DNA of 64,000 bases from a bacterium (GTDB lineage: Bacteria > Patescibacteriota > Minisyncoccia > Phycocordibacterales > UBA6899). This document shows, piece by piece, positions 41,190 to 59,223 of this stretch (its first letter is position 1; each line of letters opens with the position of its first letter). The position numbers were made by a program, and so were the translations under genes. Below the pieces are notes generated by a model. It did not search any database. It was not told the DNA's origin and saw only the letters and a program-made list of their open reading frames with translations. Where the stretch lies: NCBI GenBank assembly GCA_021851895.1, contig JAJZQJ010000006.1:13861-77860 (forward strand), read 5' to 3'.

Positions 41190-41196
41190 CGATCAA

Positions 41197-41847: not shown

Positions 41848-42033
41848 GAGTGCTCCTTGTTCTCCCCCACCATGGGGAAAAGTTCTCTCGTCTAACTAAC
41901 ACAAATCATAGAAAAGACAAGATTCGCACCAGGGTATTGAAAAAGTTTAAATATTCAAAGATTTACAGAATTTCATTTCACAACAAAATTCGTGAGGATT
42001 TTATTTTTGTATTTCAAAACATTGCACAACGAA

Positions 42034-42156
42034 AAACTGCAGATTTGGGATGAAGTTGCCCTCGCTGGAGGCGTGCCGACCGACGGAGCCGTAGGCGTTC
42101 TACGGTGACGAGGCGGTGCGCCGAAGCGTGAGGGCAAATTCGCCCAAATGTGCAGT
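42034..42156. ncRNA. GC-rich extended imperfect hairpin of about 123 nt (candidate structured RNA or 3'-UTR element); the strand is unknown
   Basis: Outer arms aaactgcagatttggg / cccaaatgtgcagttt; inner arms ttgccctc / gagggcaa; apical ccgtag gcgtt ctacgg. GC-rich within an AT-rich spacer. Confidence 0.3.
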
Positions 42157-42786
42157 TTAGAAAAGATTTAACTTATTCAATACAACAAGATGAGGGTAGT
42201 CTACAATATCGCGGACAAACTTATCATACACCCCGAATCGATATTCAAACTCCGCAGACTCCATGAGCGCATACGAGAGCTCCTTCCCTACTTCTGCCTC
42301 AAGCTTCTTGAGTTCGCGCTCGATCGCTGCACGCTTCAGTTTATCACCAACGATGAGTACATCGACACGAGAGGTCGGCTCATCGATGAAGATACCTGCA
42401 ACAATGATGAGTTTGAAGTGTCCACACCCCTTGAAGCGGGCTGCGATGTCTTCCTTGCCCATTGCGATCTCGGTGACGAGACCACGAAGTGAAGCAAGGA
42501 ATGGGAATGATGGATCGAGGCCATATCCTGTGAACTTCTTTTTCTTGAGTTCGGTCTCTGCGCTCACCTTGGCCCGTGATGACTTTGGCACGAGCTTCAC
42601 CGCCTCGCGCTCTTTAACAAGTGCAATATCACGGAGAAGACGTACCTCTTTGCGTGCAACATCGATCGAGGTTCGTGCGCGTTGAGCGACGTCGGCGATC
42701 TCGTAGATCTCTTCACTGTTCATGAGGAAAAGGCGCATGACGCGGACGCGTGCCGCTGAGCCGAATAGTTTCGCGAGGGTATCCAT
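42157..42786 (-). CDS. Conserved hypothetical protein with a possible N-terminal HTH
   Basis: 209 aa from MDTLAKLFG; no catalytic motif recognised. Confidence 0.45.
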   Translation of the reverse strand: MDTLAKLFGSAARVRVMRLFLMNSEEIYEIADVAQRARTSIDVARKEVRLLRDIALVKEREAVKLVPKSSRAKVSAETELKKKKFTGYGLDPSFPFLASLRGLVTEIAMGKEDIAARFKGCGHFKLIIVAGIFIDEPTSRVDVLIVGDKLKRAAIERELKKLEAEVGKELSYALMESAEFEYRFGVYDKFVRDIVDYPHLVVLNKLNLF

Positions 42787-42840
42787 AATACGGTTAGTGT
42801 AGCATAGACGGGGCCAAAAATCACCCCGAAAACACGCAAA

Positions 42841-42862
42841 AACCACGCCAGGCGTGGTTTTT
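42841..42862. terminator. Terminator of paralog A (aaccacgcc a ggcgtggtt plus T-run)
   Basis: Seen in the sequence. Confidence 0.6.
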
Positions 42863-42975
42863 GCACAAAAGACAAGACTATGCTCAGGCCACCAGGAAGT
42901 GCCTGTAGACGGCGAAAAAATGCGAAACGCGAGCACCGGACGGCGCTCGCGTTTCTACACAATCATTCCTTTTAA

Positions 42976-45027
42976 TTAATTGGTGATGAAGAGGTTTGAA
43001 GACTGGAAGTCGCCTTCTGGAGTACCCGCGATCTGTGCGGTCGCTGCTCCATAGGCACCACTCGTCGTATAGCCGACAGAGTTTACCTGGAGACGATACT
43101 GGCCTGCTGCAGTCGGATCATAGGTCACGACGACCTCGATCGTTGCTGACTCACCATCTGCGATACGGACGTAATTACCATCACGTGTACCACCGGAGAT
43201 GAGGGCTACAGACTTCGTTGTCGCACCTGACGACACGACGTTGCCATTTCCATCCTCCATGCTGTACACAACACCCGTTGTGCTCGTTGCTGAATCGATG
43301 GTGAATGGCACCCAGATATCATTACCTGATGCAGTCACACGAATCTGCATGTGGTACTCACCATAACTTGCTGATGGGTTATATGAGTTTTGCACTGCAT
43401 TCGCATATGAGCTTACGCGAGCGATATTGAGGCCCGTCGAGCGGAAAGTCTGCGTGCGACCTGTTGCTGAACCTGAGAATGCAGTGATGTTATCACCATT
43501 CTGATCCTGTGCATTTACCGAGGCGTAAGAGACGGTCATCGAGCTTCCTTCTGGGAATGATGCAGTGCCGATCTTCAACATGCGCGCAACGACATCGAAG
43601 GTTGCAGTGTTGTCCTGATCGATCGTTGCGAGATCATCGAGGTTAAATGTGAGTACACCACCTGAGACCGCTGTTGCGTCTGCGGTTGCAAGCACATTGC
43701 CATCACGAAGGAGCTGAAACTCGCTTGCCTGATTTGCGATCGCCGCACCCGAACTTGAAACATTCACGCGAACCTGATCGAACTGTGTACGTGTTCCCTC
43801 TGGCTTCAAGCGGAACTCGAGCATCGTCACCTTGTCGCCTGAACCACTATCAGAGACGAATACCGTGCGCTCATCAGGATTGTTTGCACCAGTATAGATG
43901 CGCACCTTTACGTCGCCTGAGGTTGAGAGCTTGTCGACGTATACTCCTGAATTTGAGACGCTTGAACCATCAGAGAAGGTGTAGCCGGTTGCATCGGTGA
44001 AACGGATGCTATCAGCACGCACAGTCCATGGACTTCCGCTTCCGGCAATTGCTGAATCGATGTATGGGACACCAATAGCGCGCACGTAGAATACCGTCTG
44101 GCCAGATGAGCCCATGCGTACGATCGCATTATCGAGCGCGACTGCCTTCGAGTACTGACCGGAGCCATCGCGATAGAAATCACTTGCGGAGACACGTCCG
44201 ACCTGTGAACCATTAGCATAGATCTCGAACGCGTCGAAGTAGCGCGTGAGGTTGTTGTTATTTGAACCGTTGTAATTCAAAGTGAGGCGAAGATTCGTCA
44301 CACGGACATCGGACCCGTCTGCGCGTACCTTGAAACCAAGTACGTACTTCCCTGATCCCGTCACAACGTTGTCTTCAACATCCGCAGAATAGCTATTTAC
44401 GGAAATCGAGCCTGCGCTGCCATTCAATCCTGAGTTGTTTGTATATCCCCCGTTGTTGTAGTTCGACGATGTGTTTGTATTCGTCACGACCGTCGTCGGA
44501 GTAACTGAAGATGGGATATCAGTGCTTGCACCAAGAACGACACCACCTGTTGGGACGCAGAGCTGATGCAATTGTGCGCGAGTCGCTACACCAACGATAC
44601 CTGTACCGTAGGAAAGACCCATAGGCGCAAGCACATCGGCTGCATACTTATTCTGAAAACGAATGACTGCAGCACGAGTCAATGGACCAAAATAGTCCGT
44701 CTCTGCACCGGGAGCACCAACTCCGTAGCCTGCAACCTGCGTATCTGCAGACTGATTAAGGACACGCTGGAGCTCGACGACCTCGGGGTCATACATGCCA
44801 AGCGAAAGCTCTTTGGTGAATGTGCACGATGTGCCAACATTTGCATTTGCATTATTGTAGGCGATCACTGCATTCCCACCATTCTGCGAAAGCTGCAACT
44901 GCTGCAACTGTGCAATGAGGGCGTTGATCTGTGCTTGTAATTCGTCAGTAGTCACCGCAGAAGCCATTGCGGGTACCAAGAGTACAAGCATGAGCAACCC
45001 GGCGAATTTTGTAATCATATTTTTCAT
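42976..45027 (-). CDS. Surface protein paralog A: signal peptide, peptidoglycan-binding (PG_binding_1-like) domain, beta-rich core, conserved FQSSNLFITN C-terminus
   Basis: Start at MKNMITKF. TTDELQAQINALIAQLQQ helix. Cys-bracketed G(M)xDxEVxxLQxxLN...YFGPxTxAAVIxFQNKY PG-binding domain. Shares its termini with paralogs B and C. Confidence 0.75.
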   Translation of the reverse strand: MKNMITKFAGLLMLVLLVPAMASAVTTDELQAQINALIAQLQQLQLSQNGGNAVIAYNNANANVGTSCTFTKELSLGMYDPEVVELQRVLNQSADTQVAGYGVGAPGAETDYFGPLTRAAVIRFQNKYAADVLAPMGLSYGTGIVGVATRAQLHQLCVPTGGVVLGASTDIPSSVTPTTVVTNTNTSSNYNNGGYTNNSGLNGSAGSISVNSYSADVEDNVVTGSGKYVLGFKVRADGSDVRVTNLRLTLNYNGSNNNNLTRYFDAFEIYANGSQVGRVSASDFYRDGSGQYSKAVALDNAIVRMGSSGQTVFYVRAIGVPYIDSAIAGSGSPWTVRADSIRFTDATGYTFSDGSSVSNSGVYVDKLSTSGDVKVRIYTGANNPDERTVFVSDSGSGDKVTMLEFRLKPEGTRTQFDQVRVNVSSSGAAIANQASEFQLLRDGNVLATADATAVSGGVLTFNLDDLATIDQDNTATFDVVARMLKIGTASFPEGSSMTVSYASVNAQDQNGDNITAFSGSATGRTQTFRSTGLNIARVSSYANAVQNSYNPSASYGEYHMQIRVTASGNDIWVPFTIDSATSTTGVVYSMEDGNGNVVSSGATTKSVALISGGTRDGNYVRIADGESATIEVVVTYDPTAAGQYRLQVNSVGYTTSGAYGAATAQIAGTPEGDFQSSNLFITN

Positions 45028-45183
45028 AATATTTTGAGTTTTTTGACACCGAAGGCCAACAGGCCAAGGGCGCAAATGGGTGTTTGGTAATCATGGTTCT
45101 ACCACAACCCCAACTGAGAAACAAGCAAAGCACGGCCCTGTGACAAGGTTTTTACCTTGACACCACGATTCCCTCCCTGCCTT

Positions 45184-45209
45184 TTTAAAGGACAAAACTG
45201 TCCTTTAAA
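45184..45209. promoter_or_regulatory. Perfect palindrome TTTAAAGGACA-aaac-TGTCCTTTAAA in the paralog A upstream region; a further half-site TTTGTCCTTTAGT at 45271-45283
   Basis: Seen in the sequence; the 13-mer is identical to 52088-52100. Confidence 0.55.
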
Positions 45210-45384
45210 AAGGACGCTCACTAACATGCGCTATACCTAGCTTTCTGGAGATACATGAATTCCCTTCATCTTTGTCCTTTAGTTTCGTGCACATTTGCAA
45301 TTATCTTCAGAACACACATTATATATATTGGCAAGTATTCTATACACCATGCGCATACAGACAAGGCTTCCCCTCACAACAAAA

Positions 45385-45409
45385 AACTTCGCCGAAGCGA
45401 AGTTTTTTG
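45385..45409. terminator. Terminator of paralog B (aacttcgc cgaa gcgaagtt, flanked by A5 and T6)
   Basis: Seen in the sequence. Confidence 0.65.
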
Positions 45410-45437
45410 TCTTGAACGACTTACCGAATACTCTGCA

Positions 45438-47438
45438 TTAATTCGTAATGAAGAGATTCGATGTCTGGAAGTCAGTGTCAGGAGTTGCTGCGATCGATGC
45501 AGTTGCTGCACCAGTTGCGCCAGCGGTTGTGTATCCGACTGAGCCAACCTGCAAACGGAACTGACCAGCTGCAGCAGCGTCGTAAGTCACAACGATATCA
45601 AGTGTTGCGGACTCACCATCTGCGATCTTCACATAGTTACCATCGCGGATTCCGCCAGAGACGAGTGCGACCGAAGCCGTAGTCGTACCTGTGGTTGATG
45701 CGATCGTTGCACCATTTGAGTCCTCGATCGTGTATGAGATACCGGTCGTTGAACTTGCATTATCAATCGTAAATGGTACCCAGATATCATCACCAGAAGC
45801 GGTGACCTTTACCTGCATGTCGAATGTACCGAAGCTTGCTGATGGCGTGTTCGAGTTCGTTGTCGCACTTGCCGTCGAGCTTACCTTGGTTACATTAAGA
45901 CCAGTTGCACGGAAGGTCTGTGTCTTTCCGGTTGCTGAACCATAGAACTTCGATGTTGGGATCACATCACCGTTGACGTCCTGAGCGTTGATACCATAGG
46001 TTGCGATCGTAACTGATGAGGTTGCACCCTGCGGGAACGTCGCAGTAGCGATCTTCTGCATCTTACCCACGATCTGGTAGGTGACCGTATCATCCTGGTT
46101 CACATACTCGAGATTATCGAGATTGAATGTTGCAAGACCAGTTGCTGCGGTAAACTCTGAAGTATTTGTTGGATCAACCGTTGCAAGGGTTGAACCATTC
46201 TTCACGAGCTGGAACTCGCTGAACATCTGGCTCGTCGAGGTTGAGCTGGTTGTCGTTGCTTTCAACTGATCAAATGAGATCTTCGTACCCTCTGCCTTGA
46301 TGCGGAACTCGTTCATGACGACCTTGTCGCCTGAATTGTCCTGTGAAACAAAGACGGTGCGCTCGTCTGGATTTGCTGAGCTTGATGAGAAGCGAACCTT
46401 GACATCAGATGATGAAGCGAGCTTACTGACCGTAATACCTGAATAGGTCACACCACTTGCTGTTGAAGAAAGAGTGACGCCAGTTGCATCCTGGTAACGA
46501 ATTTCGTTAAGGGTTGCGGTCCAAAGTGCTGCAAGATTTGCAGTATCAATGGTCTGCGCACCAATAGCCTTCACTGCGAAGGTGACCTGGTTTGCAGTAC
46601 CCATGCGTACGATCGTATTTGCGTTAAGCGCAATGGTCTTTGAGTAGTGACCAGCAGAATCACGGTTGAAATCACCCGCCATTGCTGAACCTACCTTTGA
46701 ACCATTCGCATAAATATCAAGTTCCTGGAAATAGCGATCGAGGTAGTTCGAGACACTTGAATTGTCCGTCATTGCAAGCGAAATCTTTACATGAGAGACA
46801 TTGATATCTGAACCATCTGCCTTGACCTTAAAGCCGAGAACGGTCTGCGCTGCACCAGTGACGACGTTCGTGTCGTTATCTGAGCTGTAGTTGCTGATAT
46901 CTGCTGAACCAGCACCACCATTAAGACCAGAAACACTTGTACCCGTGGTACCCGTCGTGCCGGTTGTTCCGGTCGTTGTACCTGGAGTGGTTGTCGTAGG
47001 TACTGCTGCACAAAGTGCATTGATCTTTGCGCGAGTCATTGCCCCGACCAAGCCGCTACCCATTGAGAGACCCACTGGAGCGAGCACCTCAGATGCGTAC
47101 TTGTTCTGGAACTTGATGACTGCAGCCTTTGTTGCGGGTCCGAAGTACATCGTCTCATTCCCCATTGAGCCAGGACCTGATGCTGCGACCTCGGTCGCCA
47201 TGTCCTGATTGAGGAACTTCTGGAGATTCATCACCTCCGCGTCCGACATACCCTGCTTGAGTGTCTTGGTGAAGACCGATGAGCAAGATGCGGTTGCTGC
47301 CGGCTTTGCTGCTGCGAGTTGTGCCATAAGCGCATTGATCTGCGCCTGGAGCTCCTCGATGGTCGCTGCTGATGCTACCACTGGGAGGAGCACCGAAGCG
47401 AGGGCAAGGCCGACGAACTTTGTATACTTATTCGTCAT
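45438..47438 (-). CDS. Surface protein paralog B (666 aa): same architecture, C-terminus TDFQTSNLFITN
   Basis: N-terminus MTNKYTKFVGLALASVLLPVVASAATIEELQAQINALMAQL; PG-binding domain; Thr/Gly linker. Confidence 0.75.
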   Translation of the reverse strand: MTNKYTKFVGLALASVLLPVVASAATIEELQAQINALMAQLAAAKPAATASCSSVFTKTLKQGMSDAEVMNLQKFLNQDMATEVAASGPGSMGNETMYFGPATKAAVIKFQNKYASEVLAPVGLSMGSGLVGAMTRAKINALCAAVPTTTTPGTTTGTTGTTGTTGTSVSGLNGGAGSADISNYSSDNDTNVVTGAAQTVLGFKVKADGSDINVSHVKISLAMTDNSSVSNYLDRYFQELDIYANGSKVGSAMAGDFNRDSAGHYSKTIALNANTIVRMGTANQVTFAVKAIGAQTIDTANLAALWTATLNEIRYQDATGVTLSSTASGVTYSGITVSKLASSSDVKVRFSSSSANPDERTVFVSQDNSGDKVVMNEFRIKAEGTKISFDQLKATTTSSTSTSQMFSEFQLVKNGSTLATVDPTNTSEFTAATGLATFNLDNLEYVNQDDTVTYQIVGKMQKIATATFPQGATSSVTIATYGINAQDVNGDVIPTSKFYGSATGKTQTFRATGLNVTKVSSTASATTNSNTPSASFGTFDMQVKVTASGDDIWVPFTIDNASSTTGISYTIEDSNGATIASTTGTTTASVALVSGGIRDGNYVKIADGESATLDIVVTYDAAAAGQFRLQVGSVGYTTAGATGAATASIAATPDTDFQTSNLFITN

Positions 47439-47880
47439 ATGAATTTAAATGAAATAATCAACTTGTTCCGTTTTCGCTTGGACGCCATACGAATAGAACA
47501 CTCGTATTCCGTACCTCGCTCGGCGGAATAAATCATGTAGTCATCATGCGATGTCTACGAGAGTTCACTACTGTTATAAATAATGAAGCTCATAAATCAC
47601 GGTTTGAAGTTTGTGCGTACCATCCCCTCCGCAAGAAGTGACAATACGCAGCTGGCCCGTATATAAGACATGGATCCGCAAGCGTTCCCTGCATATATAC
47701 GTACCGATCGATCACGATCAGCATCCCAGAAAGTGCGGTGGCTACCCATCTTCCCATGCAACCCTGATCGACTGCTTCGCTTTCCTCTATGAGGCATCCA
47801 CAGTGCGTACACCACAGATGCTCCATCGCAGAAACTTTTCGCACAAACATACAAAGACGAAAAACTGCTCACGAAAGCTT
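47439..47880. repeat. About 440-nt non-coding upstream block of paralog B, duplicated at 50319-50767 with about 85-90% identity; contains a conserved leader hairpin at 47487-47507
   Basis: Aligned by eye. Shared segments aaataatcaacttgttccgttttcgct..., ataaatcacggtttgaagtttgtgc...ccgcaagaagtgacaatac..., and gcagaaacttttcgcacaaacatacaaagacgaaaaactgctcacgaaagct. The ORFs called inside it (47590-48018) are judged spurious. Confidence 0.7.
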
Positions 47881-48130
47881 TCTCCTCACACACAAGCTAC
47901 CGCTCGATCGCTCGGGCAGTACCTATCTTGCACGAACCCCTGGAGTAGAGGACCGTGTGCGATAGACATCCTGTCAGACGTCTTCACTTGCATAACAATG
48001 CCGTACTACGTTTTGTGACAGGAATAGCATAATTATATAGTCGATAACAATATCGGCAATAAAAAGCATCCACACAATGTCCTATACGAATGGTTAGGGC
48101 ATAAAGGACAGGGGTGCCTTGTTCAATTCA

Positions 48131-48262
48131 AGGGAATAGGGAAAAGGGAAAAGCGTATAGGGTAAATGCCACTAGTAAGAAAAAACGCGAGCACAGTAGG
48201 TGCTCGTGTTTTTTGTATTCTGTTTTTCTCTTTTCCCTATACCCTTTTCCCTTTTCCCTAGC
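48131..48262. mobile_element. MITE-like mini-element: imperfect TIRs about 30 bp long (agggaatagggaaaagggaaaagcgtataggg / ccctatacccttttcccttttccct) around a terminator-type hairpin
   Basis: The TIRs are reverse complements with a few mismatches; same repeat family as 52219-52736, 55118-55349 and 62138-62175. Confidence 0.55.
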
Positions 48263-48286
48263 ATATCCTCCTCTTCCTAAAAGCAA

Positions 48287-48308
48287 AAACCCGCCGAAGC
48301 GGGTTTTT
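48287..48308. terminator. Terminator of paralog C (aaacccgc cgaa gcgggttt)
   Basis: Seen in the sequence. Confidence 0.65.
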
Positions 48309-48347
48309 GTCTGTAGACGATCAGAGATCGTTTCTACATCAGGAACA

Positions 48348-50318
48348 TTAGTTCGTGATGAAGAGGTTTGATGACTGGAAGTCTGACTCTGGTGCTGCAG
48401 TGATCGAGAGGCTTGCTCCGGTTGCTGCATCAGTGTTGTTGTAACCAACTGAACCGATCTGGAGGCGGTACTGGCCAGCTGCTGATGGGTCGTAAGTTAC
48501 GACAACCTCGAGCGTTGCTGACTCACCGTCTGCGATCTTCACCGTGTTGCCATCGCGAGTACCACCTGAAATGAGTGCTACTGATGCGGTGTTCGTACCT
48601 GCTGCAGTTACGTCAGTGTTGTTTGAATCCTCAACAGTGAAACGTACACCTGCTGCGCCGGTTGAGCTTGCGGTGAATGGAACCCATACATCATTGCCTG
48701 ATGCGGTTACCTTAACATCGTAGGTGAAGGTACCGAAGCTTGCTGATGGTGTGTTTGAGTTCGTGGTTGCAGCTACATTTGAGCTGACCTTGGTTACGTT
48801 AAGACCAGTTGCAAGGAAGGTCTGCTGGCGGCCATCTGCTGAGCCATAGAACTTCGATGATGGGATAACGTCGCCGTTTACGTCCTGAGCGTTGATGCTC
48901 TTGAACGAGATGGTTGCGGTCTGGCCTGCAACGAAGGTTGCGGTACCGATCTTCTGCATCTTTGCAACGACCTGGAAGGTCTGGGTCTCGTCCTGGTTAA
49001 CAGTTACGAGGTTGTCGATGTTGAAGTATGCAACACCTGCTGAAAGCTCTGAGCTTGAAGTGTCGACAGTGTCGATGACTGAACCATTCTGGACGAGCTG
49101 GAGCTCGCTGATCATGTTTGAAGTCGTCGTTGAAGTCGTAACGTTCATCTGGAGCTGGTCAAATGACACCTTGGTGCCCTCTGCCTTTACCTTGAACTCA
49201 TTCATGACAACCTTGTCGCCTGATGAAGTATCAGAAACGAAGTTGGTCTTCACGTCTGGGTTTGCAGCACCTGCTGAGAAGCGAACCTTAACATCAGATG
49301 ATGTTGAGAGCTTGTTAACAGCAACGCCGTTGATCGTGTAGGTCGTTGTGTCTGAGAGCACTGCACCGGTTGCATCTGCGAAGCGGATGTTACCCTCGGT
49401 GATGTCCCACTTAGCACCTGCGTTATCAGAATCAATCGATGAAGCACCGACTGCCTTGATGGTGAAGGTGGTCTGGTTTGAAGCACCCATCTTCACGATA
49501 ACCTTGTTGTCAAGAGCGATCGTCTTTGAGTACTGACCAGCTGAATCACGGTTGAAGTCGCTTGCATTTGCTGAAGCAACCTTTGAACCATTTGCGTATA
49601 CGTCGATCCTATCGAAGTAACGGTTAAGGTAGTTTGAAGCATTTGGGTATGCTGATGCGTTGCTTGCCTCGAATGCGAGAGACACCTTGAGGTGTGAAAC
49701 TGCAACGTCAGAACCGTCTGCCTTTACCTTGAATCCTGCAACAGTCTGTGCAACACCCGTCACGACATTCGTGTCGTTGTCTGAAGTGTAGCTGGTGACC
49801 GTTACTGAACCTGCCGTACCATTAAGACCAGTTACTGGAGCTGGAGTTGTGGTTGGGGTGGTTGATGGAGTAGAAACAACTGCACCTGAGCAGAGAGCAT
49901 TGATCTTTGCGCGGGTTGATGCACCTACGAAACCGGTACCTGCTGAGAGGCCTGCTGGAGCGAGCACCTCAGATGCGTACTTGTTCTGGAACTTGATGAC
50001 TGCAGCCTTCGTTGCTGGGCCGAAGTACATCGTTTCGTTGCCCTTTGAACCAACGCCTGATGCTGCTACCTGAGTATCAACATCTGAGTTAAGTGCCTTC
50101 TGGAGGTCCATAACCTCAGCGTCTGACATACCTGCCTTGAGTGACTTTGAGAGTACTACTGAGCAAGATGCTGTTGTTGCCGGCTTTGCTGCTGCGAGCT
50201 GAGCCATGAGCGCATTGATCTGCGCCTGGAGCTCCTCGATGGTCGCTGCTGATGCTACTACTGGGAGGAGCACTGCTGCGAGAGCAAGACCGACGAACTT
50301 TGAATTCTTATTCGTCAT
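48348..50318 (-). CDS. Surface protein paralog C (about 656 aa from MTNKNSKF): same architecture, C-terminus SDFQSSNLFITN
   Basis: N-terminus MTNKNSKFVGLALAAVLLPVVASAATIEELQAQINALMAQLAAAKPA; PG-binding domain; the 37-codon N-terminal ORF extension is rejected. Confidence 0.75.
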   Translation of the reverse strand: MTNKNSKFVGLALAAVLLPVVASAATIEELQAQINALMAQLAAAKPATTASCSVVLSKSLKAGMSDAEVMDLQKALNSDVDTQVAASGVGSKGNETMYFGPATKAAVIKFQNKYASEVLAPAGLSAGTGFVGASTRAKINALCSGAVVSTPSTTPTTTPAPVTGLNGTAGSVTVTSYTSDNDTNVVTGVAQTVAGFKVKADGSDVAVSHLKVSLAFEASNASAYPNASNYLNRYFDRIDVYANGSKVASANASDFNRDSAGQYSKTIALDNKVIVKMGASNQTTFTIKAVGASSIDSDNAGAKWDITEGNIRFADATGAVLSDTTTYTINGVAVNKLSTSSDVKVRFSAGAANPDVKTNFVSDTSSGDKVVMNEFKVKAEGTKVSFDQLQMNVTTSTTTSNMISELQLVQNGSVIDTVDTSSSELSAGVAYFNIDNLVTVNQDETQTFQVVAKMQKIGTATFVAGQTATISFKSINAQDVNGDVIPSSKFYGSADGRQQTFLATGLNVTKVSSNVAATTNSNTPSASFGTFTYDVKVTASGNDVWVPFTASSTGAAGVRFTVEDSNNTDVTAAGTNTASVALISGGTRDGNTVKIADGESATLEVVVTYDPSAAGQYRLQIGSVGYNNTDAATGASLSITAAPESDFQSSNLFITN

Positions 50319-50767
50319 AGTGAATGAAATGAAATAATGAAACTTGTTCCGTTTTCGCTCGGACGCTATACGAATGAAACATTCGTATGTCGTACCCTCG
50401 CTCGACGGAATAAATTTTGTATCTGTCATTAACGACTGATACGGTAAACGATTACTTAACAGTAAAAGTTTTATAAATCACGGTTTGAAGTTTGTGCATA
50501 CTATCCCCTCCGCAAGAAGTGACAATACACAGCAGGCCCGTACACTCCGCTAGGATCCGCAAGCGTTCCTAATTTTGTATACGCACCAATCATCTACCAG
50601 CAATGTCCTGTGAGAAGTTTGAGTGGCTGCTCGCCCCTCTCCGTTCACTACCAACAGACGACTTGCTTCGCTTTCTTCGATGGAAAACGCGATGTCACCA
50701 CCACGCCTTTCATTGCAGAAACTTTTCGCACAAACATACAAAGACGAAAAACTGCTCACGAAAGCTG
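50319..50767. repeat. Second copy of the duplicated upstream non-coding block, with a perfect leader hairpin atacgaatg-aaa-cattcgtat at 50368-50388
   Basis: Offset of 2880-2887 nt from copy B, the same as the gene-start offset. Confidence 0.7.
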
Positions 50768-50991
50768 TTGCCTCCAGCCCCAGAACCCAGCGGCACCCAT
50801 AATACTCACTTGGTGTGTGTATGTGTGCTTAGAATTTGTGGCACGCTCATTCCCGCCCGAAGGCGTGGAGATGAATGAGCGTAACGCAATCTTATTACAG
50901 TTGCGACACTAAGTCAACAAACGAAATCATTTTTTGTGACAATTTAATGGCTCTATAACTGGATATTCGACACATCGCCTCGTCTTAGAGG

Positions 50992-51059
50992 TGTCCTAAA
51001 TATGTCCTATATGCATGCGCAAATTATTTCAATTTAGGATATACATGTCCTATAGGACA
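50992..51059. promoter_or_regulatory. Cluster of TGTCCTA half-sites ending in the perfect palindrome TGTCCT-AT-AGGACA (51046-51059), between the regulator gene and the paralog array
   Basis: Seen in the sequence. Confidence 0.5.
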
Positions 51060-51088
51060 GACCCTTTTCTCTGGTGCCGCACCGATAT

Positions 51089-51116
51089 GAAAAGGCCCAA
51101 TGTTTAGGGCCTTTTC
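51089..51116. terminator. Terminator of the regulator gene (gaaaaggccc aatgtttag ggccttttc)
   Basis: Seen in the sequence. Confidence 0.6.
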
Positions 51117-51125
51117 ATATAATTC

Positions 51126-51147
51126 GATGTCCGTTATAAAGGACATC
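51126..51147. promoter_or_regulatory. Palindrome GATGTCC-N8-GGACATC overlapping the regulator stop codon
   Basis: Seen in the sequence. Confidence 0.4.
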
Positions 51148-52030
51148 AGTGCAGCAAAGGAAGTCGCGCGATGCGGTAAGTCGACCAACGACGGTCACCC
51201 TCCTTAATAAGGATACCCTCTTCGACCATTGCGGAGAGTTCACGCTGAATGGTTTTCTCGGAAACATTTTGGAGTTTTGCCGAAATGTCCTTTATCGAAC
51301 AATTCTGTTTCGTGGCAATGACACCGGTAATGATCTCTCGGCGTGAGTTTCGTGTCTCCTCACTGCGTGCCTGGCGCTCTTGCACATCTGCATCAACGAG
51401 CGTTATGTGTGGTGCAACCGCTGAACGGATACCACCTTCGGGGACCATAGTGATCGGCTTCGCCTTGATCACCTCCTTCTCCTTTATAGGGAGAGGAGCA
51501 ATCGGCTTAGGAATGTCACTCATCTGTAGGCGCGGCGCGCTGAGCGGCGTGCTGACGGGAATCTTCTTTTCAATGGGCGGTGCGACAGGCTTTGCTTCGG
51601 CTGTCTCTGCTTTGACCGCTACTGCTTCCGTGGTCGCTGCAATCGTAGCGAGAGAGGCATCCGCCTGCTCTTCCCCACCCCGCGTCGGCGCTGCGATCTC
51701 AAGGACATCGAAGAAGTCCGAGGTGAACAACGGTGCGGGGGTCGGCGCAGCACTACCTCGTGCCGCAAGGAGTACCTCGAGCGCACGGAGCTCATCCTCA
51801 AGGACATCAGCATTCATCGGGCTGACTGCACGTGCGATACGTGCGATCGAGAGAATGTCGAGCGTCTGCTCGATACCGCGAAGAATGCTTGCAGCATCGG
51901 ATTCGAGGAGCGCTACTGCGCAGTTGCGAAGGTGCCACTTTAGGGGCTCCTTCTCGGACATGATGTCCGTGACCATATAGAGAGCTGTTGCAAGCTTCAG
52001 TGCCTTGCGTGAACTGTACGTATCTGACAT
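51146..52030 (-). CDS. Putative transcriptional regulator with a C-terminal winged HTH, an Ala/Pro-rich linker and an uncharacterised N-terminal domain
   Basis: C-terminal IKDISAKLQNVSEKTIQRELSAMVEEGILIKEGDRRWSTYRI looks like a DeoR/GntR-type recognition helix plus wing. Confidence 0.5.
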   Translation of the reverse strand: MSDTYSSRKALKLATALYMVTDIMSEKEPLKWHLRNCAVALLESDAASILRGIEQTLDILSIARIARAVSPMNADVLEDELRALEVLLAARGSAAPTPAPLFTSDFFDVLEIAAPTRGGEEQADASLATIAATTEAVAVKAETAEAKPVAPPIEKKIPVSTPLSAPRLQMSDIPKPIAPLPIKEKEVIKAKPITMVPEGGIRSAVAPHITLVDADVQERQARSEETRNSRREIITGVIATKQNCSIKDISAKLQNVSEKTIQRELSAMVEEGILIKEGDRRWSTYRIARLPLLH

Positions 52031-52042
52031 ATGTCCTTTAAA
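52025..52042. promoter_or_regulatory. 10-nt palindrome GACATATGTC overlapping the regulator ATG, followed by TGTCCTTTAAAA; upstream half-site TTTGTCCTTTAGT at 52088-52100
   Basis: Seen in the sequence. Confidence 0.5.
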
Positions 52043-52218
52043 ATAGTTGATGGATTATTAACCGACAATCAGGTTGGAACACAACCTTTTTGTCCTTTAG
52101 TAGTGACGTACATTATACTAGATAATTTGAAAATGTCAATAGTTTCCCTATCTCATATCAAAGTCACTACTCTTGTGTCCTTCATACTACTCATCTGGGA
52201 CAATACGTCAAATACCAA

Positions 52219-52736
52219 GGGAAAAGCGTATAGGGAAAAGGTAATAGGGTTAATGCATTAAAGACATTTGATGCATAGCCGTTCTACTATATTTATAGAT
52301 AGTGTGCTATATTATAGCGATGGTGTACATTAAGGACTACAAGGATCTTATTGTATGGAAGAAGTCAATGGTCCTCACAAAGACCATATACCTGCTCTGT
52401 AAACACATTCCGACCTCTGAAAAATTCAGCCTAATTTCTCAGATGCAGCGATCTGCAGTTTCTGTGCCCTCAAACATTGCGGAAGGCTACGGGCGCACGA
52501 CGCGCAAAGATTATGCGCACTTCCTGCATATTGCACGAGGCTCAGCGGCCGAGCTAGAAACCCAAATCTTACTCACGAAAGACCTCTATCCGAATATCGA
52601 TACTACGCTAGCTCTCAACCAAGTAATGGAGGTTCGTAAGATTCTTGTCGTACTTATTCAAAAACTTGAGGCAAAATGAAAATGCAGCACGAGTATGCTG
52701 CATTTCCCTATTCCCTTTTCCCTATACGCTTTTCCC
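52219..52736. mobile_element. TIR-flanked cassette (518 nt; TIRs gggaaaagcgtatagggaaaaggtaatagggttaatgc / gcatttccctattcccttttccctatacgcttttccc) carrying one small gene
   Basis: The 37-nt ends are reverse complements apart from about 4 mismatches; same family as 48131-48262. Confidence 0.6.
52320..52679 (+). CDS. Four-helix-bundle protein (23S rRNA intervening-sequence protein family)
   Basis: Signature VPSNIAEGYGR...KDYAHFLHIARGSAAELETQ; own hairpin terminator at 52679-52704. Confidence 0.65.
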   Translation: MVYIKDYKDLIVWKKSMVLTKTIYLLCKHIPTSEKFSLISQMQRSAVSVPSNIAEGYGRTTRKDYAHFLHIARGSAAELETQILLTKDLYPNIDTTLALNQVMEVRKILVVLIQKLEAK

Positions 52737-52744
52737 TTAAACTC

Positions 52745-55078
52745 CTAGAGATCGTCTGCAGTGATAAGTATCGCCCTTGGCTTCGCGCCATCTGCCGGCC
52801 CAATGATCCCCCGCTGCTCCATCATATCGATGATGCGTGCCGCTCGAGAATACCCAAGACCCATGCGTCGCTGCAAGAACGACGTCGAGGCCTTACCACT
52901 CTCGACGACAACTCGCTTTGCCTCTTCAAACTTCTCGTCATCATCACCGCTATCGATACTCCCCGAGAGCATATCATCAGGGATGCCGTCGACGAGGGTA
53001 TTCGCGCCATCGGGATTTTGAGAGCCAATTGCAAGTTCTTCACCCATCGTGCCGTCATAGTTCTCTTTGAGGAACTTTACGATCTTCTTCACCTCATCCT
53101 CGGAGATGAATGCGGACTGGAGACGTATTGGCTTTGGACTCGAAGAAGAGACATAGAGCATATCTCCCTGTCCAAGCAAGACTTCGGCGCCCGCTTCATC
53201 GATGATCGTACGTGAGTCGACTTGCGAAGCGACCTGCATTGCGATACGGCCCGGGATGTTCGCCTTAATGAGACCCGTGATGACATTGACTGACGGACGC
53301 TGTGTCGCGATCACGAGATGAATACCCGTTGCGCGTGCAAGCTGCGCGATACGGACGATCGAAGCCTCGAGCTCTTTTGGAAATGCCATCATGAGATCTG
53401 CGAGCTCATCGATGACGATAACAATGTACGGCATGAGCTCCGGAAGCTCCTTCTCCTCGCCGGGCTGCGCCTTGCCATCTAATTTACGCTTCTCATAACG
53501 GTCGAGTGCAGGCTGCAACACATTCTTATGATATGAGCCGATATCTCGACACTTCTCACGCTCAAGCACCTCGAGACGTCTATCCATCTCCTTTGTGGCC
53601 CACTTCAATGAAAGTAATGCCTTCTTCGCCGCAGTGATGACTGGAGTCAAAAGATGCGGAATGCCATTATAGAGCGTAAGCTCAACGCGCTTCGGATCCA
53701 CCATGATAAAGCGTAGCTGCTCTGGAGAATTACGATACAAAAGCGATGTGATGATCGTATGCATGGTCACCGACTTTCCTGAACCTGTCGTTCCTGCAAC
53801 CAGCATATGAGGCATCTTTGCCACGTTCATATATTGACCGGCACCACTGATTCCACGGCCCAAAGCAACAAAGAGTGGATTTGGATCGTTCATGAACGTC
53901 GGATCCCCAAGCAAGGCACCAAGACCAACCGTCGCCTTCTGCTTATTCGGAATCTCAATACCAACGAGGGACTTCCCTGGGATAGGAGCCTCGATACGGA
54001 TCGGCGATACAGCGAGCGCAAGCTCCAAGTCGCTCGCGAGCGACGTGATACGTGAGAGGCGGACGCCCTGCGCAGGTTTCAATGAATAGCGCGTAACCGA
54101 GGGACCAACGGACACCTCATCCATTTCGACCTGGATACCGAAATTCGAAAGGGTGCTCTTAATGGTATTCGCATTTGCCTTTATATCCCCAAAGCCAGCC
54201 TTGCCCTTATCCCCTGCTAGTAATGCGATCGGAGGAGGAATGTATTTCCCGTGGAGATTCGAGTCAAACGTAAACGGAACACCTTCATTTTTACTTGGAG
54301 TCTTTCCCGGCTCGTGCATGTTGACGACGAGTGGTCGCTCCTCGGGCACCTCCTCAACGGTCTCCTCTTCAGGATCCTCGACCTCAACCTCTTCTTCTTC
54401 GTCAGGTGCCTGCTCAGCGACACTCTTCTTACCAAGACGAACAGTTACACCCTCACTGCCCTCAACGAGCTCCGGCTCACCATCATCCTCTTCCTCATAC
54501 CACTGCTCTGGCTTTGGCTTTCGCTTGAAGCGCGCAAACAAATTGAACACGAATCCCAAATGGAGTGGTGTATCAAAGAGCACAAGAATCGCAATGATGA
54601 ATATCGCCGAAAGCAGTATTCCTGCGGCAATTCCGCCAAAAAGGAATTTGATTCCAAGATATACGTAGTACCCGAATGCTCCACCAACGCCACCATCCCC
54701 AGCATTCGAATCGACGAGTGCAAGCAAACCAAGCGCAGAAACGAGGAAAAACGGACCAGCGATCAAAGCAGGGGTTGGCAAACCATGCCCACCAGTGCGC
54801 AAGAAATTAAAGCCGAGCAACAGGAAGAGCGTTGGAACGACCCAATAACCGACACCAAAGACATAATGGATACCATCATAAAGCTTCGCGCCGAGAAAAC
54901 CGCCCTGTCCGAAGCCTGCGACAAAGAGAATGGCTGAAAAAAGCGCGAGCCCAATTCCGATGATAGAATGCCTTGTTTCCTCCTTTAAACCTGACCAGAA
55001 GCCTATAGATGGCCCTGCTTCATCATATTCGGGTGTTGTCTTGACTCGCTTGCGCGTTGCCTTCTTTGCTGCTGCCAT
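52745..55078 (-). CDS. ftsK: DNA translocase FtsK/SpoIIIE
   Basis: 777 aa; N-terminal TM domain, acidic linker, Walker A GTTGSGKSV, C-terminal gamma wHTH domain (LQRRMGLGYSRAARIIDMME). Confidence 0.85.
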   Translation of the reverse strand: MAAAKKATRKRVKTTPEYDEAGPSIGFWSGLKEETRHSIIGIGLALFSAILFVAGFGQGGFLGAKLYDGIHYVFGVGYWVVPTLFLLLGFNFLRTGGHGLPTPALIAGPFFLVSALGLLALVDSNAGDGGVGGAFGYYVYLGIKFLFGGIAAGILLSAIFIIAILVLFDTPLHLGFVFNLFARFKRKPKPEQWYEEEDDGEPELVEGSEGVTVRLGKKSVAEQAPDEEEEVEVEDPEEETVEEVPEERPLVVNMHEPGKTPSKNEGVPFTFDSNLHGKYIPPPIALLAGDKGKAGFGDIKANANTIKSTLSNFGIQVEMDEVSVGPSVTRYSLKPAQGVRLSRITSLASDLELALAVSPIRIEAPIPGKSLVGIEIPNKQKATVGLGALLGDPTFMNDPNPLFVALGRGISGAGQYMNVAKMPHMLVAGTTGSGKSVTMHTIITSLLYRNSPEQLRFIMVDPKRVELTLYNGIPHLLTPVITAAKKALLSLKWATKEMDRRLEVLEREKCRDIGSYHKNVLQPALDRYEKRKLDGKAQPGEEKELPELMPYIVIVIDELADLMMAFPKELEASIVRIAQLARATGIHLVIATQRPSVNVITGLIKANIPGRIAMQVASQVDSRTIIDEAGAEVLLGQGDMLYVSSSSPKPIRLQSAFISEDEVKKIVKFLKENYDGTMGEELAIGSQNPDGANTLVDGIPDDMLSGSIDSGDDDEKFEEAKRVVVESGKASTSFLQRRMGLGYSRAARIIDMMEQRGIIGPADGAKPRAILITADDL

Positions 55079-55117
55079 AAAAGTGTGATTTCGTGGCTCT
55101 ATTGTAGCACGAATGCA

Positions 55118-55349
55118 GGGTATAGGTTATAGGGAATAGGGTATAGGGAAATGCAAAATGCAATGAATCAAGCCATAAATTCGACAGGAATAGCAATTTC
55201 ATATTAAATGCGTAAAGGACATCCTCTGTCCTTTTGCTTCTGAATTACCTACGACCTATGACCTATAACCTATTGCCTATCAAGCATATTTGAGCAAGAC
55301 CAACTCACCCGGACTCTTCTCTATACCCTATTCCCTATACGCTTTTCCC
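55118..55349. mobile_element. Third TIR-flanked mini-element (gggtataggttatagggaatagggtatagggaaatgc ... ctataccctattccctatacgcttttccc); it encloses the palindrome AAAGGACA-tcctc-TGTCCTTT (55214-55234) upstream of ftsK
   Basis: Seen in the sequence. Confidence 0.5.
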
Positions 55350-55431
55350 TTTCACTCTCCCTCCATTGACGTTGCCAGTCTACACTTTCGCGCTGAGCCC
55401 CCACCCTCCCTCTTATGCTATCATTATCCCC

Positions 55432-55872
55432 ATGACACTCAGGCAACTCATTATTCGTGGAACAGGAATCGCACTCGCGCTAGCCTTCCTTGTCTATGCG
55501 GGAATCGAGTCACGCGGAATCTTCCTCGGGCCGACGATCATCCTCGATTCGCCACCTGAAGGCATCAGTACGACCTCTTCACTCATGCTCATTTCTGGAC
55601 GATCCATTCGCACGAAGGAGCTCACCGTCGATGGCGGTAAGGTCTTCATTGACACAAGCGGTAATTTCTCGGAGCATTTGGTGCTCTCCCCTGGGTATAA
55701 TATAATGACTATTGTTGCCACTGACGCTCGAGGAAAACAGCATACGATCACAAGGCATCTCATCTATGATGCACCTCATGAGCAGCGCATTGTGACCGCT
55801 ACTACCTTAGCAGCGACCACGACCGAGGCGACGAGTTCACCAGCAACCACTACGTCAGGAATTAACATTTAA
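55432..55872 (+). CDS. Membrane-anchored hypothetical protein upstream of recA
   Basis: Start at MTLRQLIIRG; one TM; Thr-rich tail. Confidence 0.4.
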   Translation: MTLRQLIIRGTGIALALAFLVYAGIESRGIFLGPTIILDSPPEGISTTSSLMLISGRSIRTKELTVDGGKVFIDTSGNFSEHLVLSPGYNIMTIVATDARGKQHTITRHLIYDAPHEQRIVTATTLAATTTEATSSPATTTSGINI

Positions 55873-55881
55873 CATCATCGT

Positions 55882-56985
55882 ATGGCATTCAAAAAACCAG
55901 CAAAGAAGGCGGCGAAGACGACAGGAACGAAAGCGACCGATAAAGACGCTTTCGCATCGATCGAAGCAACACTTAATGCGATCAAAACCAAGTTCGGCGA
56001 CGAAGCGATCATGAAGCTTGGCGACCAGCCACGCGTCGCGATCGAGGCAGTCTCTACCGGCTCACTCGGACTTGATCATGCGCTTGGCATCGGCGGACTT
56101 CCCCGCGGACGCATCGTAGAGATCTTTGGACCTGAATCATCAGGTAAGACGACACTTGCGCTGCACGTCATCGCAGAGGCACAGAAGATCGGTGGCATCG
56201 CAGCGTTCATCGACGCAGAGCATGCACTCGATCCTGAATATGCACGTAAACTTGGAGTAGATATCAATCATCTTCTCGTATCGCAGCCTGATACCGGAGA
56301 ACAAGCACTTGAAATCACCGAGTCACTCGTCCGCACCGGCAATATCGACGTCATCGTCGTTGACTCCGTCGCAGCACTCACCCCAAAGGATGAGATCGAG
56401 GGCGATATGGGTGCACAGCATGTTGGAAAGCAAGCTCGCCTCATGAGTCAGGCTCTCCGCAAGCTCACTGCGATCTGTAGCAAGACAAAGACCATCGTCA
56501 TCTTCATCAACCAGATCCGTATGCAGATCGGCGTGATGTTCGGTAACCCCGAGACGACGCCAGGAGGAAAGGCGCTAAAGTTCTACACCTCCGTCCGTAT
56601 CGACATCCGCAAGATCGCACAGATCAAGAAGGGTGAGGATGTCATCGGTAGCCGCACGCGAGCAAAGGTCGTGAAGAATAAGGTTGCTGCCCCATTCAAA
56701 CAGGCAGAATTCGATCTCGTCTACAACGAAGGTATCAGCCGCGAGTCAGAGATGCTCATGTTCGGTGAGAAGTATGGCATCATCAAGAAGTCGGGATCAT
56801 CATACAGCTGGGGCGATATGAAGATCGGCCGTGGCTATGACTCTGCACGACTCTTCCTCCGTGAGAACAAAGAGGTCGGCAAGGATCTCGAAGCAGCGAT
56901 CCTCGAGAAGATGCGCGGTGATGAATCATTCTCTGTCACACCGACATCTGATGATCTTGATGAAGGGACTCCTGACGAAGAGTAG
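55882..56985 (+). CDS. recA: Recombinase RecA
   Basis: GPESSGKTT Walker A; loop L1/L2 regions; 367 aa with a Lys-rich N-terminal tail and an acidic C-terminus. Confidence 0.9.
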
Positions 56986-57003
56986 AATATTTGTGCAACG
57001 TAA

Positions 57004-58267: not shown

Positions 58268-58612
58268 TTATGCATGCTGGATCTTACGACCTGAAATAGA
58301 AGGGAGCTCTTTCAGGAGGTCTAAGACAAGCGAAATAGCGAAATAGCAAATAGAGAGGAGAAGGAGGATCGTAACCGCTTTCGTCGAGAGGAATGCACCA
58401 AAGAGGTAGCGTGTCTTATCGAAGAAACCGAATGCGGCCATATTATGGAGCACTGCACCATAGGAAACATAATGCGTCGAAACGAAGATGCTTAAAAGAA
58501 GCGCATAGGTTTTGCGAGCATGAGGAAAGAAGAAATGACGCAAAAACGCGATTGCGCGGACTCTTCTCATGATACGTTGTTCGAGTTGTGTTTGCATGAT
58601 ATTTCTATTCAA
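58268..58612 (-). CDS. Small membrane protein, putative anti-sigma factor
   Basis: 114 aa with two TM segments; start overlaps the sigma-factor stop by 4 nt. Confidence 0.35.
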   Translation of the reverse strand: MNRNIMQTQLEQRIMRRVRAIAFLRHFFFPHARKTYALLLSIFVSTHYVSYGAVLHNMAAFGFFDKTRYLFGAFLSTKAVTILLLLSICYFAISLVLDLLKELPSISGRKIQHA

Positions 58613-59223
58613 ATCAATTCACCCCCTTTGCGCGCGGCGACCTCAAGCGCATGCTTTCCTCTATAGATCCTTGTCTTTACCGCAGCGAGCGTGAGGCCCT
58701 CCATAGCCGCGATTTCCTTTTGCGAATATTCTTCAAGAAAGAAGAGGCGGAGCGGCCGCGCAAATACTTCAGGTATCTTTCCGAGAAGATCGCGGACGAG
58801 ATCGCGCATCTCATTATTCCTCACTTCATCATTGGTATCCGCGAGCTGCTCATAGATCTCTGGATCGAGGTCACACTGCAATGCATGTGTGCGCTTCTTA
58901 CGCTGGTATCGCGTGAATGCGGTGTTCATCAGAATGCGATACGCCCATGATCTGAACGTCGCACCTTCGACGTAATGAAATTTATCTGCGTGGATATAGA
59001 TCTTTAGAAACGTCTCCTGGACGACGTCTTCCGCATCCTGCTCGGCTTGCACGATATTGCGGGCCCGGCGGAGAAAAGCGACCTCATAGCGACGAACGAG
59101 CAGCGCGAAGCTCTCTGGATCCTTTCGGGATCGCAAGAGGAGGTCTTCATCGGCAGATGACCCATCAAGCTCGTCCACCAAGACGTCATCAAGTAGCATG
59201 GCTACAGTATGTTCGACTTTCAT
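58609..59223 (-). CDS. RNA polymerase sigma factor, ECF (sigma-70 group 4)
   Basis: Region 2 (DAEDVVQETFLKIY) and region 4 (LTLAAVKTRIYRGKHAL) motifs. Confidence 0.75.
   Translation of the reverse strand: MKVEHTVAMLLDDVLVDELDGSSADEDLLLRSRKDPESFALLVRRYEVAFLRRARNIVQAEQDAEDVVQETFLKIYIHADKFHYVEGATFRSWAYRILMNTAFTRYQRKKRTHALQCDLDPEIYEQLADTNDEVRNNEMRDLVRDLLGKIPEVFARPLRLFFLEEYSQKEIAAMEGLTLAAVKTRIYRGKHALEVAARKGGELI

Follow-up and report, generated by a model that had tools for sequence, protein, structure and literature searches.

Winged-helix repressors that control their own genes from operators placed on the promoters are well known. MecI and BlaI (Penicillinase_R) are autoregulated, and their operators, which have a TGT/ACA core, coincide in part with the core promoter of the repressor gene and with that of a divergent target gene. 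Here we describe a locus in a 64-kb stretch of a Patescibacteriota genome (contig JAJZQJ010000006.1; this whole stretch is called the window below), in which copies of a short sequence, the box, lie around the gene of a winged helix-turn-helix (wHTH) protein, the regulator, and near ftsK, gdB-recA and three surface-protein paralogs (A, B and C). The regulator shares the winged-helix fold with MecI and BlaI, chains of which are among the best Foldseek matches to its C-terminal domain. In MecI and BlaI, however, the winged helix is N-terminal and is combined with a compact C-terminal dimerisation domain, the operators are palindromes of fixed spacing and the repressor is inactivated through cleavage by a sensor protease, whereas the winged helix of the regulator is C-terminal, following a four-helix bundle and a disordered linker of ~120 amino acids, and its site grammar is flexible. 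The Pfam model Penicillinase_R (PF03965) gave a weak match in 5 of 32 members of the regulator family (best E 0.005), which, with the differing architecture, does not place the regulator among these proteins.

Other known systems resemble the locus in part. DeoR proteins form oligomers and occupy several operators simultaneously, but they combine an N-terminal helix-turn-helix with a C-terminal DeoRC sugar-phosphate sensor; in the regulator the helix-turn-helix is C-terminal, and Pfam returned no DeoRC match in the family, which thus falls outside the DeoR proteins. Response regulators of the OmpR/PhoB type and iteron-binding Rep proteins place winged helices on direct repeats 10-11 bp apart, close to the modal 11 bp found here. 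Unlike them, the regulator has neither a receiver domain nor a Rep fold, uses inverted and everted pairs of sites as well, and has no two-component or plasmid-origin link. LexA/SOS control of recA in Patescibacteria has reportedly been described by Sanchez-Osuna, Barbe and Erill in 2017 (Environ Microbiol 19:3465, cited in PMC8565304), and would likewise place the sites of a DNA-binding protein near recA, within the same superphylum. The box, however, is not a palindrome of LexA type and is used in direct repeats, the boxes centre on the regulator and ftsK and not directly on recA, and Pfam detected in the regulator helix-turn-helix models and weak unrelated matches only, none of them a peptidase family, whereas a LexA would have an S24 peptidase domain. 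Finally, the N-terminal domain has marginal fold matches to the four-helix-bundle proteins of 23S rRNA intervening sequences, the S23/IVS family (TIGR02436, PF05635), which includes Avd, and a free-standing member of that family (52302-52679) is encoded beside the regulator in the window and in four related loci (L001-L004). Avd proteins form pentamers, and we know of no S23/IVS family member fused to a DNA-binding domain. What is new at this locus is the protein family, its bundle-tether-winged-helix architecture, the flexible site grammar and a conserved association with ftsK-recA and with a gene for a surface protein. No paper describing the regulator family or the motif was found in our literature searches.

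A 9-bp box upstream of the regulator gene

Relatives of the regulator were sought in a set that holds a single genome for each GTDB species, with distant loci retrieved using the peptide pattern SEKTIQRE, among others. Of the 599 candidate stretches listed, 582 were confirmed as encoding a relative, giving a homologue in at least 582 species. More than 2111 homologues were present in databases, and all named ones belong to Paceibacterota/Parcubacteria, none with a functional name. Eighty loci were kept for comparison, of which 79 were usable, with regulators 24-47% identical. In the 300 nucleotides (nt) 5' of the regulator gene, the top 6-mers were AAGACA (133 copies versus 10.6 expected; 69 loci) and AGGACA (72 versus 7.7), with AAAGAC, TAAAAG and GACATA also among the top 6-mers of the 79 loci. 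A[AG]GACA reached 13.97/kb in the 250 nt 5' of the regulator, while the rest of the intergenic DNA of these loci had 1.19/kb and their coding DNA 1.59/kb; at least one box was present in 78 of the 79 loci and at least two in 63. Co-occurrence of the motif with homologues of the regulator, which the initial annotation had put forward as a check on its reading, is therefore found across the family. The consensus of 307 sites was T(0.64) A(0.72) A(0.86) A(0.65) R G A C A.

Copies in the sense direction of the regulator outnumber those in antisense by 188 to 36, and their positions peak between -50 and the ATG, being most frequent from -10 to -1. Where boxes form direct repeats in these distant loci, the modal spacing is 11 bp. 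When the spacing between a -10 hexamer of sigma-70 type and the box was measured, a sharp peak appeared at 0 (n=37), and TAnnnT is directly followed by RGACA in 38 of 79 loci. This composite occurs at 2.34/kb 5' of the regulator and 0.08/kb in other intergenic DNA, a 30-fold difference which argues that it is not a general promoter feature. A density of 4/kb was also measured in the 50 nt past the regulator stop codon.

Gene order is conserved along with the boxes. Among 83 loci, ftsK adjoins the regulator in 82, 73 have gdB and recA, and 53 have a homologue of the surface proteins downstream. In 79 loci (L005-L083) ftsK-gdB-recA is divergent from the regulator, with a box-rich region common to both, while the window and L001-L004 have ftsK in inverted orientation and a 23S_rRNA_IVP (IVP) gene inserted between ftsK and the regulator. 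By this gene order, ftsK with gdB and recA is the ancestral divergent neighbour of the regulator. After the rearrangement, the regulator and ftsK each keep their own boxes (window, L001-L003).

In the window itself the motif is enriched, both in number and in placement. AAGGACA was observed 21 times versus 6.5 +/- 2.7 expected, a count reached in 0 of 100 shuffles. Equal density of the motif in coding DNA would have refuted the initial annotation; instead, on a greedy map of open reading frames (ORFs), AGGACA occurred at 2.02/kb in non-coding versus 0.48/kb in coding DNA, a difference of ~4-fold. All 16 non-coding copies fall within 45189-55227, which holds ~35% of the non-coding DNA of the window, and flank paralogs A-C, the regulator gene and ftsK; no AGGACA was present in the other ~5.1 kb of non-coding DNA. 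Similarly, 9 of 11 copies of AAAGGACA are non-coding. When the window was rescanned with a position weight matrix (PWM) built solely from sites of the distant relatives, 10 of 12 matches of at least 13 bits fell in 45185-52257.

The sites that the initial annotation described as a family of palindromes are thus real, but the palindrome is not the unit that recurs. GGACA-N0-12-TGTCC occurred 3 times versus 0.72 expected (2 of 100 shuffles reach 3) and TGTCC-N0-12-GGACA twice versus 0.65 expected (13 of 100 shuffles reach 2), such that inverted or everted pairing by itself is weakly, marginally above chance. As pairing is near the chance level, the real signal is the shared half-site, together with one long palindrome at 45182-45211. 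The recurring unit is the 9-bp half-site TAAARGACA and not a palindrome, and this box is used singly, as direct repeats 11 bp apart, or as inverted or everted pairs, palindromy not being essential.

Boxes of the window and of its close relatives

Sites were read directly from the sequence of 44800-55600 and are collected in Table 1 with the genes and promoters around them. Every element listed in the initial annotation was found. The everted pairs at 51046-51059 and over the regulator stop codon, the inverted pair 5' of ftsK and the extra TGTCCTA half-sites read as listed, and the palindrome 5' of paralog A, given as 45184-45209, is perfect and extends further. The palindrome over the regulator ATG exists but had been placed one position too low, at 52025-52034, as had the second copy of the 13-mer TTTGTCCTTTAGT, at 52088-52100, the first copy being correctly located. 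The list had missed the pair 5' of paralog B, the third regulator box and the pair within the regulator gene.

Table 1. Genes, promoters, terminator and boxes of the window. Promoters are predictions from consensus matches only; domain assignments are from Pfam.
Feature	Coordinates	Strand	Remarks
Surface-protein paralog A	42976-45027	-	PG_binding_1 domain
Palindrome TTTTTAAAGGACA-aaac-TGTCCTTTAAAAA	45182-45211	both	perfect, 13-bp arms; ~155-185 nt 5' of paralog A ATG
Box ACTAAAGGACAAA (13-mer TTTGTCCTTTAGT) in paralog A leader	45271-45283	-	identical to the 13-mer at 52089-52101
Paralog A promoter, weak candidate	45364-45337	-	boxes 3' of promoter, in leader
Surface-protein paralog B	45438-47438	-	
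Paralog B promoter	48032-48059	-	TTGCCG-16-TATAAT; leader ~580 nt
Pair 5' of paralog B, TGTCCTTTA-N16-TATAGGACA read on - strand	48078-48110	both	
Surface-protein paralog C	48348-50318	-	start set by homology to paralog B
Paralog C promoter, candidate	50889-50917	-	TTGACT-17-TAAGAT; leader ~570 nt; nearly identical in L001 and L002
Direct repeat ATAGGACAtatTTAGGACA	50992-51010	-	TGTCCTA copies 50992-50998 and 51003-51009, 11-bp spacing
Everted pair TGTCCTATAGGACA	51046-51059	both	3' of regulator terminator, 5' of paralog C promoter
Regulator terminator hairpin	51089-51116	-	GAAAAGGCCC-N8-GGGCCTTTTC
Everted pair GATGTCC-N8-GGACATC	51126-51147	both	spans regulator TGA stop codon
Regulator gene	51146-52030	-	294 amino acids
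Coding pair GGACATGATGTCC	51956-51968		within regulator gene
Palindrome GACATATGTC	52026-52035		overlaps regulator ATG 52030-52028
Box R1 TTAAAGGACAT	52031-52041	-	ends 1 nt 5' of ATG 52030-52028; PWM 16.0 bits
Box R2 ACTAAAGGACAAA	52089-52101	-	11 nt past P1 -10 hexamer, about the transcription start; PWM 15.0 bits
Regulator promoter P1	52112-52139	-	TTGACA-16-TATAAT, 12/12 consensus; conserved in L001-L003
Box R3 (gAAGGACAc)	52176-52182	-	2 nt 3' of P2 -10 hexamer
Regulator promoter P2 (upstream)	52184-52211	-	TTGACG-16-TAGTAT; TTGAC and TAG.AT blocks conserved in 4 genomes
23S_rRNA_IVP / four-helix-bundle ORF	52302-52679	opposite to regulator	Pfam
ftsK	52745-55078	-	Pfam
Inverted pair AAAGGACA-tcctc-TGTCCTTT	55214-55234	both	divergent region between ftsK and gdB-recA
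gdB (small Glucodextran_B-like protein) and recA	55366-56985	+	Pfam

Three contigs (L001, L002 and L003) carry regulators 67-69% identical to that of the window. They share the order recA-gdB-ftsK-IVP-regulator, and in the two contigs that extend far enough (L001, L002) the paralog array comes next; alignment shows boxes at the same places, as invariant islands within diverged spacers. At the regulator, the core CACTACTAAAGGACA of box R2, which follows TTGACA-16-TATAAT, is invariant in the 4 genomes while its flanks vary, and TTAAAGGACATATGTCA over the start codon is likewise invariant. The third box (R3), past the conserved P2 promoter, is less conserved among the relatives; its placement matches the +0 to +5 peak after the -10 hexamer in the distant loci. 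A Shine-Dalgarno role was considered for AAAGGACAtATG and rejected, as its spacing to the ATG is too short, no comparable purine-rich sequence is present at the starts of paralogs A-C or ftsK, and the motif is absent from other starts.

At the stop codon a TGTCCT-TA-RGACA element is present, with TGTCCTATAAGACA and TGTCCTTAAGGACA as the equivalents in L001-L003. The terminator beyond it is in the same position with a different hairpin sequence (ATACCGCC...GGCGGTAT), and past this the everted pair 51046-51059 is conserved as TGTC(C/T)TATAGGACA. In the window, the pair at the stop codon encloses a -10-like TTTATAAC (51126-51116 region, - strand), with the terminator ~10-40 nt further on, and more distant loci have TGTCC-N10-GGACA pairs around what look like real -10 hexamers. 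The top-scoring box of the window, ATAAAGGACATT (16.1 bits, 51284-51295), lies inside the regulator coding sequence, over the codons for the conserved winged-helix residues S-I-K-D-I, and could be either a coincidence or an intragenic site.

The three paralogous surface proteins are of ~660-700 amino acids with a PG_binding_1 domain (Pfam), and boxes lie 5' of each. At paralog A, the two half-sites of the long palindrome score 15.9 and 13.6 bits with the PWM, and the leader box has a counterpart in L002, ACTAAAGGACAAACATGAAGG at 16478. The pair at paralog B, composed of TAAAGGACA (48102-48110, + strand) and TATAGGACA (48086-48078, - strand), lies 18 nt and ~43 nt 5' of the predicted -35 hexamer and is also present in L002 (13754-13796). 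The boxes of paralog C lie 75-140 nt 5' of its predicted promoter, and the direct repeat among them reads GGGACAnATTTAGGACA in the relatives.

The leaders of paralogs B (47439-48030) and C (50319-50888), on the - strand, contain blocks that are 88-94% identical, compared with 71-80% in the coding sequence, and these blocks are conserved in the relatives (L001 11080-11709; L002 10985-11580 and 13795-14374). RNAalifold on 5 leader sequences gave 150 pairs, 26 of them with compensatory changes, and by this comparison the leaders are a candidate structured leader RNA of the surface-protein genes. They have no Rfam match, and a permissive Rfam scan of 40000-57000 returned sub-threshold chance matches only.

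The region 5' of ftsK bears on the other condition that would have refuted the initial annotation, namely that the motif is simply part of a repeat resembling a miniature inverted-repeat transposable element (MITE). In the window and L002 this region holds the palindrome flanked by repeat arms, while L001 and L003 have the direct repeat TAAAGGACAATAAAGGACA without arms. Since the ftsK boxes of L001 and L003 are present without the arms, the boxes are independent of the MITE-like repeat, and palindrome and direct repeat are interchangeable at this position. The arms belong to purine-rich inverted repeats of the GGGAAWAGGG type, found at 48126-48264, 52217-52249/52706-52738, 55117-55150/55317-55350 and 62127-62184, with a weak copy at 1591-1634. 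Their contents vary, from a terminator-like hairpin to the 23S_rRNA_IVP ORF and the box palindrome upstream of ftsK, and they resemble a family of small repeats that form cassettes; the copies at 48126-48264 and 62127-62184 have no box inside. Inverted repeat copies at 52699-52737 and 55117-55155 flank ftsK exactly, which, with the inversion of ftsK, suggests that the inversion was mediated by the repeats.

The regulator as the probable binder of the boxes

Pfam assigned HTH_DeoR to residues 230-276 of the regulator (E 1.4e-4), the sole model above its cut-off (22 bits versus 21), and the same model matches 31 of 32 family members. AlphaFold2 predicted a four-helix bundle (4-92), a disordered stretch of ~120 residues (93-212) and a long helix with a winged helix (213-287), the latter including a helix-turn-helix plus beta-hairpin wing at 246-287, with a predicted local distance difference test (pLDDT) score >90 in both folded domains. 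The family alignment follows this division, with a conserved N-terminus (RKAEKLTTALYMVTDIMSEKEPLKW...MNA..L), a variable low-complexity middle and a near-invariant C-terminus (DRRKII...VSEKTIQRELLAMV.EGIL.K.GERRWSTY). The recognition helix SEKTIQRE and the wing RRW.TY are invariant among sequences ~30% identical overall. When compared with the PDB using Foldseek, the C-terminus matched the winged helices of MecI/BlaI, Fur/PerR and ArsR. The best matches of the N-terminus were 2gsc and 2rld, of the S23/IVS four-helix-bundle family, with chains A-E of each among the matches; the target-normalised template modelling (TM) scores were 0.65-0.71, at marginal E values of 2e-3 to 0.15 for what is a common fold.

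We consider it likely that the boxes are bound by the regulator through its C-terminal winged helix, and that this protein, probably as an oligomer, represses its own gene and also acts at ftsK/recA and the surface genes in the clade of the window. The winged helix would recognise the 9-bp box, with the invariant helix and wing matching the invariant GACA core. If the N-terminal four-helix bundle of the predicted structure serves as an oligomerisation module, several winged helices on flexible tethers of ~120 amino acids could occupy box arrays in any arrangement, which would explain the direct, inverted, everted and single boxes alike; direct repeats 11 bp apart would correspond to one helical turn. 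At its own gene, protein bound just past the P2 -10 hexamer, at the P1 transcription start and over the start codon would block RNA polymerase, and boxes in these places imply negative autoregulation. In this clade, boxes at the ftsK / gdB-recA region, 5' of the paralog B and C promoters and within the paralog A leader would allow co-regulation of these genes. Enrichment and conservation of the boxes, their placement relative to promoters, the predicted architecture and the gene order are computational results, from which we infer the binding protein, its oligomeric state and the direction of regulation.

The initial annotation had proposed an autoregulated wHTH protein controlling the surface-protein array. 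Autoregulation is strongly supported by the comparative evidence, as the boxes track the regulator and abut or overlap -10 hexamers, while the link to the surface genes is limited to the window and its closest clade. Intergenic DNA between the regulator and the surface gene holds 24 boxes in 4.46 kb, ~5.4/kb, in L004, L006, L007, L010 and L018, compared with ~1.2/kb, the background density, in the other 48 loci, so the surface-gene link is clade-limited or weak.

That last result counts against the proposed explanation in its full extent, and several others weigh on the same side. All the evidence that names the regulator as the most likely binder of the boxes consists of adjacency and co-occurrence. 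As SEKTIQRE was used in retrieval, the invariance of the recognition helix is partly a sampling effect. Covariation between the box variant and the protein sequence was tried and is uninformative, since the recognition helix is invariant and the choice of G or A at the R position follows genomic GC content (r=0.52). As K-D-I is encoded by AAR-GAC-AT, box-like sequences are enriched in that part of the gene in all homologues, and intragenic hits need to be discounted accordingly. The N-terminal kinship to pentameric S23/IVS proteins is a lead from fold comparison only: no PF05635/TIGR02436 sequence match was detected in the domain, Pfam gave none at E up to 1 in 32 members, hhalign of the domain versus the neighbouring IVP family member gave E 0.045 (probability 1.2%), and a PDB profile search with the domain returned only 2ibo (E 0.17). 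The strand bias and the crowding of boxes into the 50 nt next to the ATG also fit an element acting at the RNA level, which is taken up below. In addition, a motif-to-gene search with AAAGACANNNNAAAGACA in metagenomes gave at least 120 stretches, mostly chance matches in unrelated AT-rich DNA; among the matches listed, one locus (L125) has a regulator homologue, directly downstream of the match, and the search tells little beyond this single case.

The boxes could instead be bound by a different protein, such as a cell-cycle or stress regulator of ftsK-gdB-recA, with the wHTH gene carrying them from a shared or formerly shared divergent region. The divergent adjacency of ftsK in 79 of 83 loci, with its common box-rich region, is what such an arrangement would look like. 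We nonetheless regard this as unlikely, since in the window and L001-L003, where ftsK has been moved away, the regulator keeps three boxes of its own, on its two promoters and its start codon. Furthermore, the boxes in the shared region run in the sense direction of the regulator and are concentrated near its ATG, not towards ftsK, autoregulatory sites beside a DNA-binding gene are the usual case, and an invariant helix is matched by an invariant core.

An RNA element (UAAARGACA) in 5' leaders, controlling translation or messenger RNA stability and perhaps bound by the same protein, would account for the 188:36 sense bias, the peak from -50 to -1 with overlap of the start codon, and the box in the paralog A leader. 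It is nevertheless improbable as an explanation of the boxes, because in 38 of 79 loci the box comes directly after the -10 hexamer and hence upstream of any likely transcription start, and the boxes of paralogs B and C are 5' of the predicted -35 hexamer, for C also beyond a terminator. Inverted and everted pairs, and the exchange of palindrome for direct repeat at ftsK, fit recognition of double-stranded DNA, and in the fold comparison the C-terminal domain is matched best by repressors that bind DNA.

Reading of the boxes by RNA polymerase, either as -35-like GACA elements or as sites of a sigma factor of the ECF type, is more doubtful still. GACA does resemble the 3' half of TTGACA, TTGGACA stands at the -35 position in some distant loci, and an ECF-type sigma factor gene (Sigma70_r2, r4_2) lies nearby in the window (58609-59256, - strand) and is kept near the locus in L002 (2041-2631). 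Most boxes, however, have no -10 hexamer 16-18 nt downstream; by eye and by promoter scan, a suitable one was present only for the box at 51051, where 51051-51023 scores as a promoter, and a -35 role was rejected. The placement of boxes directly after -10 hexamers, their use in both orientations, the 11-bp periodicity and the 30-fold rarity of the composite elsewhere also speak against a promoter element.

That the boxes are functionless debris of GGGAAWAGGG cassettes, paralog duplication or other mobile elements is largely refuted by comparison of the genomes and scarcely credible, for although the palindrome at 55214 sits between two repeat arms and the DNA upstream of paralog B is a duplicate of that upstream of paralog C, the ftsK boxes of L001 and L003 have no arms, two repeat copies have no box, and 78 of 79 species have boxes at the regulator within unrelated flanking sequence.

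Binding and autorepression by the regulator may also be extended to a more far-reaching proposal, which we hold to be unlikely. The protein would then be a multivalent binder of a new type, in which an S23/Avd-like bundle, possibly of five subunits, carries tethered winged helices that read boxes in any orientation and spacing and bridge sites hundreds of bp apart, acting as a lineage-wide master switch that couples segregation and repair of the chromosome (ftsK-gdB-recA) with formation of the surface layer in Paceibacterota; the neighbouring free four-helix-bundle protein might modulate it through mixed oligomers.

Other features of the window and meaning for the lineage

A role of the locus as a replication origin, terminus, dif site or FtsK-orienting sequence was rejected, as no GC-skew switch is present and few copies of the motif occur elsewhere; the ORFs scanned included no dnaA. 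Elsewhere in the window, 37-nt inverted repeats with ATAAACGTCC (35114-35150 and 36065-36101) flank a PaaX-like gene (ORF 35340-36005, with a Cas2-like central domain), and this region may be a second pair of regulator and operator with a different motif. The ORF 36244-40101 (1285 amino acids, with a match to the Lamin Tail Domain) holds a tandem 90-nt repeat, 72% identical, at 37088-37267, and probably encodes a repetitive surface protein.

Paceibacterota (Parcubacteria) are a very large and almost wholly uncultured branch of the Candidate Phyla Radiation. A box on the promoters of the regulator in nearly all sampled relatives from this lineage would provide it with a first testable regulatory circuit, comprising a 9-bp motif, a candidate binding protein widespread in the lineage, a recurring five-gene neighbourhood (recA, gdB, ftsK, regulator and surface-protein gene) and boxes on two tandem promoters and the start codon. 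It can be tested in vitro with recombinant protein, with no need for culture of the organism. To our knowledge, proteins of the S23/IVS/Avd type have no known role outside diversity-generating retroelements, and the mechanism of a tethered oligomer, if true, would give a function to a fold related to these four-helix-bundle proteins.

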